From the NCBI GenBank assembly GCA_000092065.1, contig CP000581.1: a stretch of DNA of 64,000 nucleotides; one strand, 5' to 3'. The translations under genes were made by a program, and so were the position numbers. Positions 4,013 to 14,384 of this stretch are shown here, piece after piece; the stretch's first letter is position 1, and each line of letters starts with the position of its first letter. The DNA comes from Ostreococcus lucimarinus. Taxonomy: Eukaryota. Under the pieces are notes generated by a model. It was not told the DNA's origin, made no database searches, and saw only the letters and a list, made by a program, of their open reading frames with translations.

Positions 4013-4211
4013 ACATTCATCAATAGATACACTGCATTTAGGGATTCGTTCGAGACTTCTTCACACACACCGTCGGGTAGTGCACCTCCTGAACGCACAA
4101 ACCCGTAACATCGCGAAATCGCGAAATCGCGAGTGGGGCGGACCTCATTTTGTGACTACGGTGTATATACCAGATGAAATGCTTAATAAGCGATCATTTC
4201 GTCGCCAAAAT

Positions 4212-4394
4212 GCTCGATTGGTCTAGTGGTTATGACGTCTGCTTAACATATACCGGCCTCCGCGCCACAATATGGACAAGCACGAGATTGCGATTTACTT
4301 CGCATTCTTACGTTTCTCAAGGAAAGCGCGACGCGAGTCGCGCGCTTCTAGCTTAACGCGCAGAAGGTCTCCGGTTCAATCCCGGAATTGAGTA
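4212..4394 (+). tRNA. nuclear tRNA-Val (anticodon AAC) interrupted by a ~110-nt intron (about 4249..4358) at the canonical 37/38 position
   Basis: 5' exon GCTCGATTGGTCTAGTGGTTATGACGTCTGCTTAACA and 3' exon CGCAGAAGGTCTCCGGTTCAATCCCGGAATTGAGTA fold into a cloverleaf (D-arm GTCT/AGTGGTTA/TGAC, anticodon stem TCTGC/GCAGA, T-arm TCCGG TTCAATC CCGGA, acceptor with two G-U pairs); near-identical to known eukaryotic tRNA-Val(AAC); followed by T6 tract. Confidence 0.75.
4249..4358 (+). other. tRNA intron (boundaries ambiguous within a 7-nt direct repeat GCTTAAC present at 4241-4247 and 4351-4357)
   Basis: anticodon-stem 3' half GCAGA only appears ~110 nt downstream of the anticodon loop. Confidence 0.6.
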
Positions 4395-4396
4395 TC

Positions 4397-4402
4397 TTTT
4401 TT
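4397..4402 (+). terminator. RNA polymerase III terminator T-tract (TTTTTT) 3 nt after the tRNA discriminator base
   Basis: attgagtaTCTTTTTTgcc directly downstream of acceptor stem. Confidence 0.7.
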
Positions 4403-4536
4403 GCCCATCATTTTACAACCTTTTATTTATTTCGACTCACTGCACCCCATACCGGCGGGGACGACAACGCCCGCTCCAGGCGTTTTTCTTGGGTGAACGC
4501 CGACGGTCGCGCGACACACACGGCGACGCGCGTGAC

Positions 4537-6536: not shown

Positions 6537-6672
6537 CGAACACGGTCAGTCTAGCATCCACACAAGCATCATGAAGAGAAAAGGGCGATACGCTGATGAT
6601 TTTTCACTATCAGACCGATTTTTGATTCATTCTTTTAGTACTACTACTACATTCTTTTCAACTTTGCTACTG

Positions 6673-8637
6673 CTACCAAGCGTCGACAAAATATCGACCA
6701 GTCGTTTCTAATTTAGTCATGTATCGTGCGCTTGCGTCCTCGTCGAGCAATCCTTGCTCGCGCACGACCTCCTGGATCGCTTTGTGCACGGCCGCGGGCA
6801 TCTTTTCTGCCGATCCAGCTACGAAGACTTTCGCTCCAGCCTCGAGCAAGGACCATATACGTTTCGCTTCATCCTTGACGCAATCTTGCACGTATCGCTT
6901 CTTCGCCTCTGGCACCATGCGAGAAAACGCGACGACAACACCTCCGAGTGAATCGCCGCCAGAACCAATTAAAGAGCCATCTTTTTCAATTTGTTTCCAC
7001 TCTTCCTTATATAAATAATCGTGCCGTGCGTGACGGCATCCAAACACGACCAATGCGCTTGCCGTGGAGGATTGCAGCACGCGTGCTCGAACAAAGGATC
7101 GAAATGGTGCGATACCAGTGCCCGGACCGATGAGAATCAATGGGGTCTCGGGTGGTGGTAAACTGATGCTTCCTTTGGTGATAGAGTATTTCACGCGCGT
7201 GCCAACGTCCAAAGAGTTCAGCCAGGAAGAACATAATCCTTTCCGCGCCCGTTTCATCGGTGTCACCCATTCCGCAGCGGCAACGGTGATGTGCGTCGCC
7301 GCCGTCCGCTCAGTATCCGCTGGAGAAGACGATATGGAATAATATCGCGGATGCAAGTGAGGAGCTACTTGCAAAAGCCACGCCAGTGACGGTTTTAACG
7401 ACGGAAAATCGTCGAATATTTCACACACCGTCCTTCGCTCGCGCTGATTGTACTTGTACAAATCCACAGCGCCCTCTGCCGAGGCAAAGTACTGAAGACG
7501 CTCCTTTTCGTGTTCGCTTTCGGCAAAATGACTCATGACCTCAAAAAAGTAACGTCTTGGGGATGCAGAATCCACATCGATCGCACCTGCGAGTAAGTAC
7601 TTGACCTGAATCAACGGGAACAATGCAGCCTTCGTCTCGGGCGCCGACGAAGGATAAACGCGCACCCAAGCATCCGGAGACATGCCCAGACGCTCAATCA
7701 GAGCCGAGACTTTGGCGTCGGCGGCACGCGTTGCGAAAGGTATCACGCCTAACACATCACCTGCTTCGTAGTGCGCGATCGAGGCGTCTAAGGTTTGAAA
7801 TTCTAGGTGACGAACCTCCTTGACGGCGTCGTCACTCGTCAAACATCTATTCTCACTCACGAATCCATCGTAATACGTTGTGTCGCGCGATTCGCGAGCT
7901 TCGTACTCAGCTTTTGAGAATGAAGTGCTAGCGTCGCTCGCATCAGCCGCCGCGAGCGCGAGTCGCAACGCCGTGTGTGCCTCCATCAGGCGTTCTCCGC
8001 TCGCCTCGACAATGCCCTCTGCGCAGGCAACCTCTTCCACGACGAATCTACAAGCGGGTAACGGCGCACTCGAGAGCTCGGCCTCGGTGAGGTCTTTCAA
8101 GTGCGGTGGCAACGGAAATATCTCGCGCATAGATTTCCACAACTCTCTCAACCACGGATTCAACGCCGCCTCGTACCCAAGTGGGTGCTGGTCATCTCCC
8201 AACCCAAGCGCTTCAATCGCGTTTGCCCCGAGCCCTTGCAGGCGCCGAAAAAGTTTTTTAGCGGTGACGTTATATTTTTGATATCCCGAATCGCCCAACC
8301 CGAACACGGCGTAGGACATGTTCGTCAGAGACGTCGCGGACAAACTCCGCCGCAGCAAAAATCTCCAAAAGCTCTTCATGTTCCTCGGTTCGTCACCCTG
8401 TCCTGTGGTGGACGTGACAAACACCACGCACCGCTCGCGAGGTAACGTTCGCACGTCATATCCCTCCATGGTCATGAGCACGGGGGCGTAATGCTTGAGC
8501 TTGGCCTCTCTCACGACGCGCTCCGCGACGTCTTGCGCGTTCCCAGTCTCCGAACCGTAGAGCACGAGCACGCGACGAGCGGGCGATGCGCCCGACGCGT
8601 CCGATGCGCCCGATGCGCCCGCGCCTGCGCTCACCAT
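6673..8637 (-). CDS. NDOR1: NADPH-dependent diflavin oxidoreductase 1 (NDOR1/Tah18/ATR3-like; flavodoxin + FAD/NADPH domains)
   Basis: VLVLYGSETGNAQDVAERV, VFVTSTTGQGDEPRNMKSFWRFLL, YAVFGLGDSGYQKYN, RYYSISSS, GLCSSWL, GPGTGIAPFRSF; ATG at 8637 verified. Confidence 0.85.
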   Translation of the reverse strand: MVSAGAGASGASDASGASPARRVLVLYGSETGNAQDVAERVVREAKLKHYAPVLMTMEGYDVRTLPRERCVVFVTSTTGQGDEPRNMKSFWRFLLRRSLSATSLTNMSYAVFGLGDSGYQKYNVTAKKLFRRLQGLGANAIEALGLGDDQHPLGYEAALNPWLRELWKSMREIFPLPPHLKDLTEAELSSAPLPACRFVVEEVACAEGIVEASGERLMEAHTALRLALAAADASDASTSFSKAEYEARESRDTTYYDGFVSENRCLTSDDAVKEVRHLEFQTLDASIAHYEAGDVLGVIPFATRAADAKVSALIERLGMSPDAWVRVYPSSAPETKAALFPLIQVKYLLAGAIDVDSASPRRYFFEVMSHFAESEHEKERLQYFASAEGAVDLYKYNQRERRTVCEIFDDFPSLKPSLAWLLQVAPHLHPRYYSISSSPADTERTAATHITVAAAEWVTPMKRARKGLCSSWLNSLDVGTRVKYSITKGSISLPPPETPLILIGPGTGIAPFRSFVRARVLQSSTASALVVFGCRHARHDYLYKEEWKQIEKDGSLIGSGGDSLGGVVVAFSRMVPEAKKRYVQDCVKDEAKRIWSLLEAGAKVFVAGSAEKMPAAVHKAIQEVVREQGLLDEDASARYMTKLETTGRYFVDAW

Positions 8638-11925: not shown

Positions 11926-12344
11926 GGAGGCGAGACGTGGACGGAAAACGTCTTTCCGCCCGCCAGTGCGCGCTCCCCCGCCCTGGCGCGCGACACCTCC
12001 GCGTCTCGATCCCGCGCTCGGTTGTCCGCGGAGACCGCGCGCGAGCGTCACGAGCGTCGCGCGCTCGATGCGGTGGATCGAATGGTGGTGAAATCCGCGA
12101 TGGAGGATTTGAGAAAGGTGGCCGATAGTTTAGACGCGGACGCGTGGATGTATCGACCGAAGCGCGAGGCGTGAGGACGGCGCAAAGTTCGAGGCGTCGG
12201 TTCTTCTCGACTTTTAGTCTAGCTCTAGTTTCCATGTATGATTCTTAGTCTGCGGCCATTTTTCATCGAAAAGGGGAACGATTGAGTTCACCGCGAACGG
12301 GCGATTTGCGGCACTCGACGGCGCGTTCGCGGTACGAAGACGCG

Positions 12345-14384
12345 ATGTCCGGCGTGTTGACGCCACACAATCAGAAAATTAAACGCGGTGGGCGGAAGAA
12401 GACCCCGCTGAGCCGATCACCCGCACCATCCGGACTGTTATCCCCGAACGATGATCAGCTGGAACGACAAAAATCGCTCCTGTCCCGCGAAGCGACGGAA
12501 GAGATGCGGCGGGATTTCGCCACCGAGCTCGAAGAAAATGCGGAATCTGCGCCGGTGAAGAAGCCGAGTAAACTCGAAGAACTCACCGGAGCGCCGCAAG
12601 CACCACCAAAACCGGTCAAGAAGCTGTCGGCGGACGCGGTTTTGAACCTCTACACCAACTGCATCAAGCTCGCGTCGGAGAACAAAATCAACGCCAAAAA
12701 CACATGGAGCCTGGCTTTGATCGATCACATCAGCGATATCGTGAAGAATGAAAAAGATGAAGACAATCAAACTAACTTTCAAAAGGCGAGCTGCACATTG
12801 GAAGCTGGTGTGAAGATTTATGCATCGCGCGTAGATTCGTTCCACAGCGAAACTTTCAAGATGCTCGGTGGGATGAACAAAGTCTCGTCCAACGGCGAAG
12901 AAGAAGAAGATGATGGACGACAAGGACTTGGAGACGGTGCGGATGGGAGTCAATTGCCGGAAGACGGCGATGGAGCGAAAACAAAGAAACGACGAGCGAC
13001 CGTAAACACTTTGGAGATGCCGGACGCACACTCGTTGAAGCAGCTCGACGAAACGTTAGTCGTCGATCCTCTTTTCCAAAAGACGAGTGCCATGTTTGAT
13101 GAAGGTGGTGCCTCAGGTCTTCTATTGACAAACTTAGCCGTACACAAAGGGTGCAATATTTGTTTTGACTCAGAAGAGGTGCCAGACTACACGAAGGGCG
13201 AGGACGCGCCGCTCACGGGGACGCTCGATCTCTCGTCGTTGCGTGCTTCAATCGAAGCTGCGACCACGGCCATGGCGTCGGTGTCGCGCATCACACCTTC
13301 TATCGATGAAGTTCAAGCTATGCTCACGGAAGTCACGGGTGTTGCTCCCACCAAGGCAACTGAAGAAAGCGCAGAGGGTGCGGGCTCATTCTTTACGGGT
13401 TCGTCGCTCGAAGGGATAAACTTGGCAGAATACGACGACGAAGATGAAGATATTGCGGAGGAGTCGCCAGAGGACTGGGCTGCCGGTGCTGATGGTTTCG
13501 AAGACGAAAATTGGGCGGAAGATGGCGACCATGGTACATCCATGGATGATGATACCGTTCTACCGACCCAAGAAGGTGGTTTGGAGTGGATCGTTTCATC
13601 TGGCTTAGGTGGCAAGATGGGCTGGGCTGGCCCGACACACTGGCAATTCAGAGCTCCACCTCGCGCCAAATCGAGTGCTAACGGCGAAGACGACGGTGAA
13701 AACAAAAACCAAAAGAAGAGAGGGAAGGGTGAGCTCACTTATGACTTTGAAAATCCGAGCGAGCTTGATGAACGAAGATTTGAACTCGCCGTCGACGAGG
13801 ACGACCTGTTGTTGGCCACAGCACCGAGTGCGTCCGACACTCTCCTTCCACCAGATCTCGGTTATGAACCATCCAATCTGATAAAACTTTTCTTGAAGTC
13901 TCAAAACGTGGCGAGCTTGGTAAATAGTGAATCCATGACGAATCAAGACGAGGAAGGGTTCACCTTTGGCGCAGATGAAGCTGGAGGCGAATTCGATGAT
14001 GGTGAGGAGCTGGTCGGTGAAGCGGGCGGGTGGTATGACGCCAATGAGTTAGGAGACGATGACGATTTTGTGGATGCCCCGCGACGTGTGGAAAAGATTG
14101 AGGTCAATTACGCTAGGACCACGAAGCAAGTGAACGTCCGCGCTCTCAAGCAAACGCTCTGGGCCAACCTCGAAGAATCAACGTCAGAGGAAGACGTGCA
14201 TTCTTTCAATGAGATGCTCCGGGAATTCCCCGTGAATAACCCAGCTGGACATGTTGAAGATATCAGCGTTCATATGGCGTTCATTTGCGCCCTTCACCTT
14301 GCTAATGAGCACGGTCTGGTCATCAAGAGCGTCCCTGCCATGGACGATTTATGCATCTCAAATGTTCCATGTTCAGTGAATTAG
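12345..14384 (+). CDS. CAP-H: condensin complex subunit 2 (kleisin CAP-H / Barren / Brn1)
   Basis: NCIKLASENKINAKNTWSLALIDHISDIVK...NFQKASCTLEAGVKIYASRVDSFHSETFKMLGG (conserved kleisin N-domain) and C-terminal VNVRALKQTLWANLEE...FICALHLANEHGLVIK; track ORF starts at TTG 12282; first ATG 12345. Confidence 0.85.
   Translation: MSGVLTPHNQKIKRGGRKKTPLSRSPAPSGLLSPNDDQLERQKSLLSREATEEMRRDFATELEENAESAPVKKPSKLEELTGAPQAPPKPVKKLSADAVLNLYTNCIKLASENKINAKNTWSLALIDHISDIVKNEKDEDNQTNFQKASCTLEAGVKIYASRVDSFHSETFKMLGGMNKVSSNGEEEEDDGRQGLGDGADGSQLPEDGDGAKTKKRRATVNTLEMPDAHSLKQLDETLVVDPLFQKTSAMFDEGGASGLLLTNLAVHKGCNICFDSEEVPDYTKGEDAPLTGTLDLSSLRASIEAATTAMASVSRITPSIDEVQAMLTEVTGVAPTKATEESAEGAGSFFTGSSLEGINLAEYDDEDEDIAEESPEDWAAGADGFEDENWAEDGDHGTSMDDDTVLPTQEGGLEWIVSSGLGGKMGWAGPTHWQFRAPPRAKSSANGEDDGENKNQKKRGKGELTYDFENPSELDERRFELAVDEDDLLLATAPSASDTLLPPDLGYEPSNLIKLFLKSQNVASLVNSESMTNQDEEGFTFGADEAGGEFDDGEELVGEAGGWYDANELGDDDDFVDAPRRVEKIEVNYARTTKQVNVRALKQTLWANLEESTSEEDVHSFNEMLREFPVNNPAGHVEDISVHMAFICALHLANEHGLVIKSVPAMDDLCISNVPCSVN

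Follow-up and report, generated by a model that had tools for sequence, protein, structure and literature searches.

A tRNA-Val(AAC) gene interrupted by a 110-nt intron was located at positions 4212-4394 (+) of the window, the whole 64-kb stretch of DNA that was analysed. Comparison of its sequence with those of related lineages indicates that the gene is almost certainly real and functional. It is very probably a nuclear tRNA-Val(AAC) gene of the O. lucimarinus clade A type that is transcribed by RNA polymerase III (pol III) and carries a protein-spliced intron at the canonical 37/38 position. A preliminary description of this DNA had proposed just such a gene, with an intron of about 110 nt at that position, and both the ARAGORN prediction and the exon comparison agreed that it is intact.

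Gene structure

The gene comprised a 37-nt 5' exon, the 110-nt intron and a 36-nt 3' exon. It was intergenic, with no open reading frame of more than 60 amino acids overlapping it. The diflavin reductase encoded next to it, at 6673-8637 (-), shares a 90% cluster with XP_001415838, a protein of O. lucimarinus CCE9901 that is encoded on a 1.15-Mb chromosome. The features of the gene and its flanks were:

4164-4169 (+): TATATA, a TATA-like element about 45 nt ahead of the first tRNA nucleotide (sequence reading)
4206-4208 (+): CAA triplet at positions -6 to -4 (sequence reading)
4212-4248 (+): 5' exon, tRNA positions 1-37, GCTCGATTGGTCTAGTGGTTATGACGTCTGCTTAACA (ARAGORN intron mode), with the acceptor 5' strand, D arm, anticodon stem 5' strand and loop positions U32 to A37
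4212-4218/4387-4393 (+): acceptor stem, 7 bp, including G1.U72 and G5.U68
4219-4229 (+): A box, TGGTCTAGTGG (consensus TRGCNNAGTGG; sequence reading)
4238-4242/4360-4364 (+): anticodon stem, UCUGC/GCAGA
4245-4247 (+): anticodon AAC
4249-4358 (+): intron, 110 nt, at the canonical 37/38 position (ARAGORN -if)
4359-4394 (+): 3' exon, tRNA positions 38-73, CGCAGAAGGTCTCCGGTTCAATCCCGGAATTGAGTA (ARAGORN intron mode), with the anticodon stem 3' strand, variable loop AGGTC, T arm, acceptor 3' strand and A73
4370-4386 (+): T arm, with the loop TTCAATC at 4375-4381
4373-4383 (+): B box, GGTTCAATCCC (consensus GGTTCGANTCC; sequence reading)
4394 (+): discriminator A73
4397-4402 (+): T6 pol III terminator, 2 nt past the discriminator (TC followed by T6, 4395-4402)

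The D arm, as read from the exons, had A14, G18G19 and A21. The A box consensus is the one established for pol III type 2 promoters. The gene had the layout of a pol III tRNA gene, with A and B boxes, a T-run terminator downstream and no internal run of four or more T; the T6 at 4397-4402 was the sole such run within 4212-4402 and none lay inside the intron. The T loop TTCAATC, the T6 terminator and the two G-U pairs of the acceptor stem, G1.U72 and G5.U68, had all been pointed out in the preliminary description and were found as described. The two exon halves were co-linear on one strand, 110 nt apart, and not in the order of a permuted or split tRNA gene.

The upstream TATA-like element was kept in the lineage with a 111-nt intron, while the lineages with 85- and 82-nt introns had CATATACAA closer to the gene. 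By what is known of plant tRNA genes, it is a putative promoter element. Likewise, the CAA triplet, which has CAA or CAAAA counterparts just upstream of the tRNA gene in other lineages, may represent a plant-type pol III start-region motif. A perfect tandem repeat of ATCGCGAA (2.9 copies) occupied positions 4110-4132, about 80 nt upstream of the gene. The G1.U72 wobble at the top of the acceptor stem (4212/4393) is unusual in a tRNA. It also occurred in three of the tRNA-Val(AAC) genes of the relatives described below (L003, L008 and L033), the acceptor stems of these Ostreococcus genes being otherwise different, and a fourth (L009) had G1-C72.

Detection of the gene

Default ARAGORN and Rfam in gathering mode reported no tRNA in the whole window, and Rfam in E-value mode found no match in 4150-4450. 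Both programs miss the gene because an insertion of 110 nt is not tolerated. The silence of Rfam in gathering mode is moreover uninformative for tRNAs, since an ordinary intronless O. tauri tRNA, which scored 57.9 bits in E-value mode against a cut-off of 29, was missed in the same way.

The preliminary description had suggested tRNAscan-SE or ARAGORN in eukaryotic mode. When ARAGORN was run with introns allowed (-i0,300), exactly one gene was reported in the 64-kb window, a tRNA-Val(AAC) at 4211-4396 with a 110-nt intron and a score of 107.9. The spliced RNA was also scored as Val(AAC), at 115.5. In 30 shuffled copies of the window (1.92 Mb) there were four intron-mode calls, all scoring at most 105.4. 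Taken alone, the intron-mode call is suggestive and moderately significant; the comparative evidence is decisive.

Conservation of the exons

A 28-nt word taken from the 5' exon was used to scan metagenome contigs and matched 19 loci. All 19 carried an intron and were identical to the window at all 73 exon positions. The introns were of four types, 110 nt (the window type), 111 nt, 85 nt and 80-82 nt. The upstream and downstream flanks of the 110/111 group were unrelated to those of the 85/82 group, and every lineage had six or more consecutive T no farther than about 10 nt from the end of the tRNA gene. Between the lineages with 110- and 111-nt introns, identity was 93.5% and 91.7% over the surrounding 5 kb and 93.7% over the intron, as against 100% over the exons. 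This pattern reflects purifying selection on the exons and drift of the intron at roughly the background rate. The complete conservation of the exons also offers indirect support for excision of the intron and ligation of the exons in vivo.

The 110-nt intron could barely be aligned with the 85-nt type (z = 3.5, 1 of 500 shuffles), and shuffle-tested alignment detected no similarity to the 82-nt type or to a 42-nt intron found at the syntenic locus of a relative. There was no intronless copy with the 28-nt word in the metagenome scan. The word had no match in viral contigs either, and a prasinovirus copy of the tRNA-Val gene was rejected on that ground. In about 270 kb of related loci, the Val orthologues were the only tRNA genes.

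The syntenic locus in relatives

Syntenic regions were fetched by way of orthologues of the neighbouring reductase (65-71% identity). The locus contained the following:

O. tauri, CAID01000016.2 (L033), 12324-12398: tRNA-Val(AAC), intronless (ARAGORN 118.1, Rfam 57.9 bits)
Uncultured lineage (L008), 12648-12723 (-): tRNA-Val(AAC), intronless
Uncultured lineage (L009), 7895-7969: tRNA-Val(AAC), intronless
Another lineage (L003), 6657-6773 (-): tRNA-Val(AAC), 42-nt intron at 37/38 (spliced score 117.7)
Uncultured lineage (L005): tRNA-Val(AAC), 85-nt intron
Uncultured lineage (L034): tRNA-Val(AAC), 82-nt intron
O. mediterraneus (L006): no tRNA found in the locus, which has a DDE transposase gene

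ARAGORN miscalled the unspliced L003 gene as Ser(AGA), while the form spliced at 37/38 was recognized as Val(AAC). The exons of the intronless genes and of the gene with the 42-nt intron differed from those of the window, in O. tauri at about 15 of the 73 positions. The tRNA-Val intron is thus lineage-specific and variable in length.

A single syntenic locus with no intron or with one of 42, 80-85 or 110-111 nt is of modest value for the question of how tRNA introns are gained, lost and lengthened. One might go further and propose that the Val intron is a recent lineage-specific gain that is still lengthening, the 110-nt form persisting as a stable, perhaps circular, RNA. This is an unlikely proposal; if true, Ostreococcus would provide a natural series for the gain and elongation of nuclear tRNA introns.

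Several other observations were made at the locus. Relative to the reductase, the tRNA-Val gene was (+) in L033, L034, L005 and L009 and (-) in L003 and L008; in the window it is at 4212-4394 (+). Its orientation with respect to the conserved reductase/lipocalin/HMA block differs even among lineages with identical exons (the window versus L005 and L034). Such differences in orientation imply small local inversions or re-insertions. The O. mediterraneus transposase (Plant_tran / DDE_Tnp_4, L006:12711-14249) lay just past the HMA gene and the following open reading frame, at the end of the gene block where other lineages carry tRNA-Val. In L003, a 21-nt stretch comprising the tRNA 3' end and terminator, GGGATGGTGTATTTTTTTCTT, recurred 127 nt downstream (6668-6648(-) and 6541-6521(-)), a partial duplication of the 3' end of the tRNA-Val gene. 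The intronless tRNA-Val(AAC) of L008 (12648-12723(-)) had the T loop AUCGAAA, with A54 and A60, a pattern usually linked to eukaryotic initiator tRNA.

Splice sites

The default ARAGORN settings gave 4248-4357 as the intron, and the run with -if gave 4249-4358. The preliminary description had called the splice points ambiguous, and the ambiguity of one base is real, but the comparison of lineages settles it. Cutting at 37/38 gives the mature loop UUAACAC, identical in every lineage, whereas with the alternative cut, one base upstream, nucleotide 37 would differ from lineage to lineage. The 37/38 placement is favoured because only that cut gives one mature loop across the lineages. The predicted mature junction is ...GCUUAACA|CGCAGAAGG... 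for 37/38 splicing and ...UUAAC|GCGCAG... for the alternative.

In eukaryotic pre-tRNAs, the usual signal is a U32:A(-3) anticodon-intron pair together with a bulged 3' site. The window gene had the insertion exactly between nucleotides 37 and 38 of exons that form a full cloverleaf, and in silico the U32:A(-3) pair lay in a helix of 3-4 bp with the 3' site in a 3-nt bulge. The elements concerned were:

4243-4246 (+): U32 U33 A34 A35, 5' strand of the predicted anticodon-intron helix, pairing with 4353-4356
4353-4356 (+): intron UUAA (-6 to -3), 3' strand of the predicted helix (constrained folds)
4357-4359 (+): predicted 3-nt bulge of C-2, G-1 and C38, with the 3' splice site between 4358 and 4359

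In the constrained folds, the 3' cut fell after the second base of the bulge, adjoining the anticodon stem. Forcing the anticodon-intron helix cost 1.3-3.2 kcal/mol over the cloverleaf-constrained optimum in all four lineages. The UAA at intron positions -5 to -3 was invariant over all four intron types and C38 was fixed, while positions -2 and -1 differed among lineages (CG, UC, UG and UA).

The 5' site (4248|4249) was placed differently. It lay within a predicted weak, A-U-rich helix of 5 bp (4247-4251/4270-4274) and not in a bulge, and the constrained folds contained no outer helix that would define a 5' bulge. The bulge-helix-bulge structure put forward in the preliminary description, with folding of the pre-tRNA as its check, was consequently recovered in part: the central helix and the 3' bulge were present, as in the archaeal-type hBHBh' motif, but the outer helix and the 5' bulge were missing. 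A complete bulge-helix-bulge was rejected, because only a 4-bp central helix and a 3-nt 3' bulge can be drawn. Given this half motif, with the 5' site in a helix, we infer that the 5' cut would be set by its distance from the tRNA body and not by a full bulge-helix-bulge.

The GCTTAAC repeat

The heptamer GCTTAAC, to which the preliminary description had drawn attention, was indeed present both in the anticodon arm (4241-4247) and at the end of the intron (4351-4357), and it occurred only three times on the + strand of the whole window. It had been suggested that the intron copy pairs with the anticodon region. This holds for the TTAA core, but the two copies of a direct repeat do not, as such, pair with each other. 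UUAA is its own reverse complement, and an intron segment that pairs with it in the loop must therefore have its sequence. The direct repeat is thus mainly a by-product of palindromic UUAA pairing, which covers four of the seven repeated bases. The other three were not conserved in related lineages: the introns ended in GCTTAACG, GCTAATC/G or GGTAATA according to type, so that the UAA was shared by all and the full heptamer was not.

A different account of the repeat is that the intron arose by tandem duplication of the tRNA gene, GCTTAAC and the TCT upstream of it being a remnant of the anticodon arm of the second copy. The 3' end of the intron, TCTAGCTTAAC, does resemble exon positions 27-36 (TCT-GCTTAAC), and tandem repeats of intron-containing tRNA genes as well as permuted tRNA genes are reported in O. 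lucimarinus (PMC3978253). The locus would then consist of the 5' half of copy 1, its decayed 3' half, a spacer, the 5' half of copy 2 and the 3' half of copy 2. When all intron types were aligned with both exons, however, the similarity was within shuffle expectation (p = 0.08 to 0.96), the local alignment of the window intron with the 5' exon not being significant (p about 0.08), and the 5' part of the intron contained no remnant of a 3' half. Origin by tandem duplication is very unlikely on this evidence. It concerns where the intron came from and not what the gene does, and it is compatible with a functional, spliced tRNA-Val gene.

The body of the intron

Three hairpins were predicted in the intron:

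4247-4274 (+): hairpin 1, CAUAU/AUAUG with an inner GGC/GCC (fold prediction only)
4275-4318 (+): hairpin 2, irregular, with UGCGA/UCGCA at the tip (fold prediction)
4320-4349 (+): hairpin 3, GCGCGAC-GCGA-GUCGCGC (fold prediction)

Three positions in predicted intron stems differed between the 110- and 111-nt types, and each of these substitutions gave a G.U pair. In the 111-nt lineage, one C-to-U change in hairpin 2 and another in hairpin 3 each left a G.U pair, and the GNRA loop of hairpin 3 changed from GCGA to GCAA. A hairpin common to the 85- and 82-nt introns showed one compensatory change, from A-U to G-C. By these predicted structures, the intron is under mild pressure to stay folded.

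Such hairpins, with substitutions that preserve pairing and a retained GNRA loop, would fit an intron whose length is due to a functional RNA within it, for instance a snoRNA, a stable intron circle or a regulatory element. Several observations argue against this, 1) Rfam found no family match for the intron at E<=10 in a search of 4150-4450, 2) neither C/D (RUGAUGA...CUGA) nor H/ACA motifs of an intron-hosted snoRNA were present in 4249-4358, 3) the divergence of the intron is at the local background (93.7% versus 93.5% and 91.7%), 4) the 110-nt type can hardly be aligned with the 85-nt type and cannot be aligned with the 82-nt type, and 5) the intron is wholly absent from O. tauri and two other lineages. 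A resident functional RNA is hence a very improbable explanation. Nothing suggests a separate function for the intron, which has no Rfam family, no snoRNA boxes and no conservation above background. A group I or group II self-splicing intron was also rejected, the insert being only 110 nt where at least about 200 nt is expected and having no Rfam match at E<=10.

The unconstrained minimum-energy fold differed from the cloverleaf. In it, CUUCU of the intron paired with the 3' strand of the anticodon stem, and the stem itself was not formed; the cloverleaf-constrained fold was only 1.7 kcal/mol higher than this free optimum. The segment, at 4345-4349, is complementary to AGAAG at 4362-4366 (tRNA positions 41-45). 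CUUCU was found in all intron types, and the introns of L005 and L017 had a matching CCUUCU segment. In unconstrained folds this pairing between intron and exon was more favourable than the anticodon stem, the difference being 1.7 kcal/mol for the window and 4.4-4.8 kcal/mol for the lineages with 85- and 82-nt introns. It may be either a functional alternative structure or a coincidence.

Proposed expression and processing

The anatomy of the gene, the conservation of its exons and the conserved context of the 3' splice site are shown by the sequences; transcription and splicing are inferred, and their proposed course is as follows. Transcription would be directed by the internal A and B boxes and would continue across the intron, in which there is no T4 run, as far as the T6 terminator. 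The exons would fold into a normal tRNA body, and U32-U33-A34-A35 of the anticodon loop would pair with UUAA (-6 to -3) of the intron, forming the U32:A(-3) pair and placing the 3' site in the 3-nt bulge. The 5' site, after A37, would be measured off from the tRNA body (the eukaryotic "ruler" mode), and the rest of the intron would form three hairpins that bring both of its ends together. Cleavage by the tRNA splicing endonuclease and joining by a ligase would finally yield a tRNA of 73 nt whose anticodon loop is UUAACAC.

Insertion or decay

Two further readings are extremely improbable. The first takes the insert to be a small mobile element, MITE-like or TTAA-targeting, with GCTTAAC as its target-site duplication, that came to be removed as an intron secondarily. 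A 103-nt segment does lie between the copies of an exact 7-nt direct repeat, and TTAA is known to be targeted by transposons. The intron, however, had no terminal inverted repeats. Apart from the orthologous tRNA-Val genes, no other copy of it was present in the window or in the roughly 270 kb of related loci, where only GC-rich, low-complexity fragments matched it. Nor did the repeat accompany the insert wherever it occurs, since the 85- and 82-nt introns at the same site lack it and have GCTAATC and GGTAATA instead; pairing with the palindromic loop accounts for the TTAA core, and the similarity of intron to exon is not significant (p about 0.08).

The second reading, that of a decaying pseudogene broken by a 110-bp insertion and yielding no functional tRNA, would fit the silence of Rfam and the default tRNA tools and the two G.U pairs of the acceptor stem, but it conflicts with 73 of 73 identical exon positions across four lineages that have diverged in their introns, flanks and neighbouring proteins, with zero exon substitutions where about five are expected at the local 93.5% identity of the two closest lineages, with the missing intronless copy of the exon word in the metagenome scan, and with an intact terminator and A and B boxes around an intron that has no T4 run. 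The gene is judged to be selected, and not a pseudogene, because its exons remained unchanged while introns and flanks diverged.

Significance and comparison with known systems

The preliminary description had assumed that the tRNA introns of algae are typically 10-60 nt and mostly in tRNA-Tyr and tRNA-Met, and it regarded the Val intron as unusual for this reason. The premise suits land plants but not green algae, and both long introns and an intron in tRNA-Val are normal for Ostreococcus. The tRNA introns of O. tauri are described as "unusually long (~64 nt)" in a 2026 review (PMC13578239), canonical eukaryotic tRNA introns are 6-133 nt long (PMC4090602), and the curated tRNA set of O. lucimarinus has 44 genes, four of them permuted (PMC3673656). 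The Val gene is ordinary in Ostreococcus because the genus is known for frequent and long tRNA introns. A 110-nt canonical intron falls at the long end of a known distribution, in a genus noted for long introns. Frequent, long canonical tRNA introns in Ostreococcus have been published. The gene has little importance past its correct annotation. There is a practical consequence in that bacterial-mode finders and Rfam miss it, and a pipeline could wrongly conclude that GUU, GUC and GUA are undecodable in this alga.

The intron resembles the canonical introns spliced by the Sen/TSEN endonuclease and a tRNA ligase in its position one base 3' of the anticodon, in the pairing of a pyrimidine at 32 with a purine at -3 and in its predicted bulged 3' site. 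Its length is within the canonical eukaryotic range, though near the long end (PMC4090602). It departs from these introns in that the 5' site is predicted in a weak helix and not in a loop.

The tRNA sets of the Mamiellophyceae (O. tauri, O. lucimarinus and Micromonas) are reportedly rich in introns, with long-intron and permuted genes, the sources named being Maruyama et al. 2010, Michely et al. 2013 and PlantRNA. The window gene belongs to the same genus, in which many more tRNA genes have introns than in land plants. Unlike O. tauri, for which about 64 nt is quoted and whose syntenic tRNA-Val(AAC) is intronless, the window has an intron of 110 nt, and unlike the permuted genes of this group its tRNA-Val is co-linear.

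[quoted passage not shown] It differs from the motif in having no outer helix or defined 5' bulge in the window and a central helix of only 3 bp plus a mismatch in the lineages with 85- and 82-nt introns.

Long tRNA introns of metazoans, of roughly 110 nt in Drosophila, give rise to circular tricRNAs. The intron of the window is similar to these in its length, in its predicted structure and in its location at 37/38, but its sequence is poorly conserved among Ostreococcus lineages.
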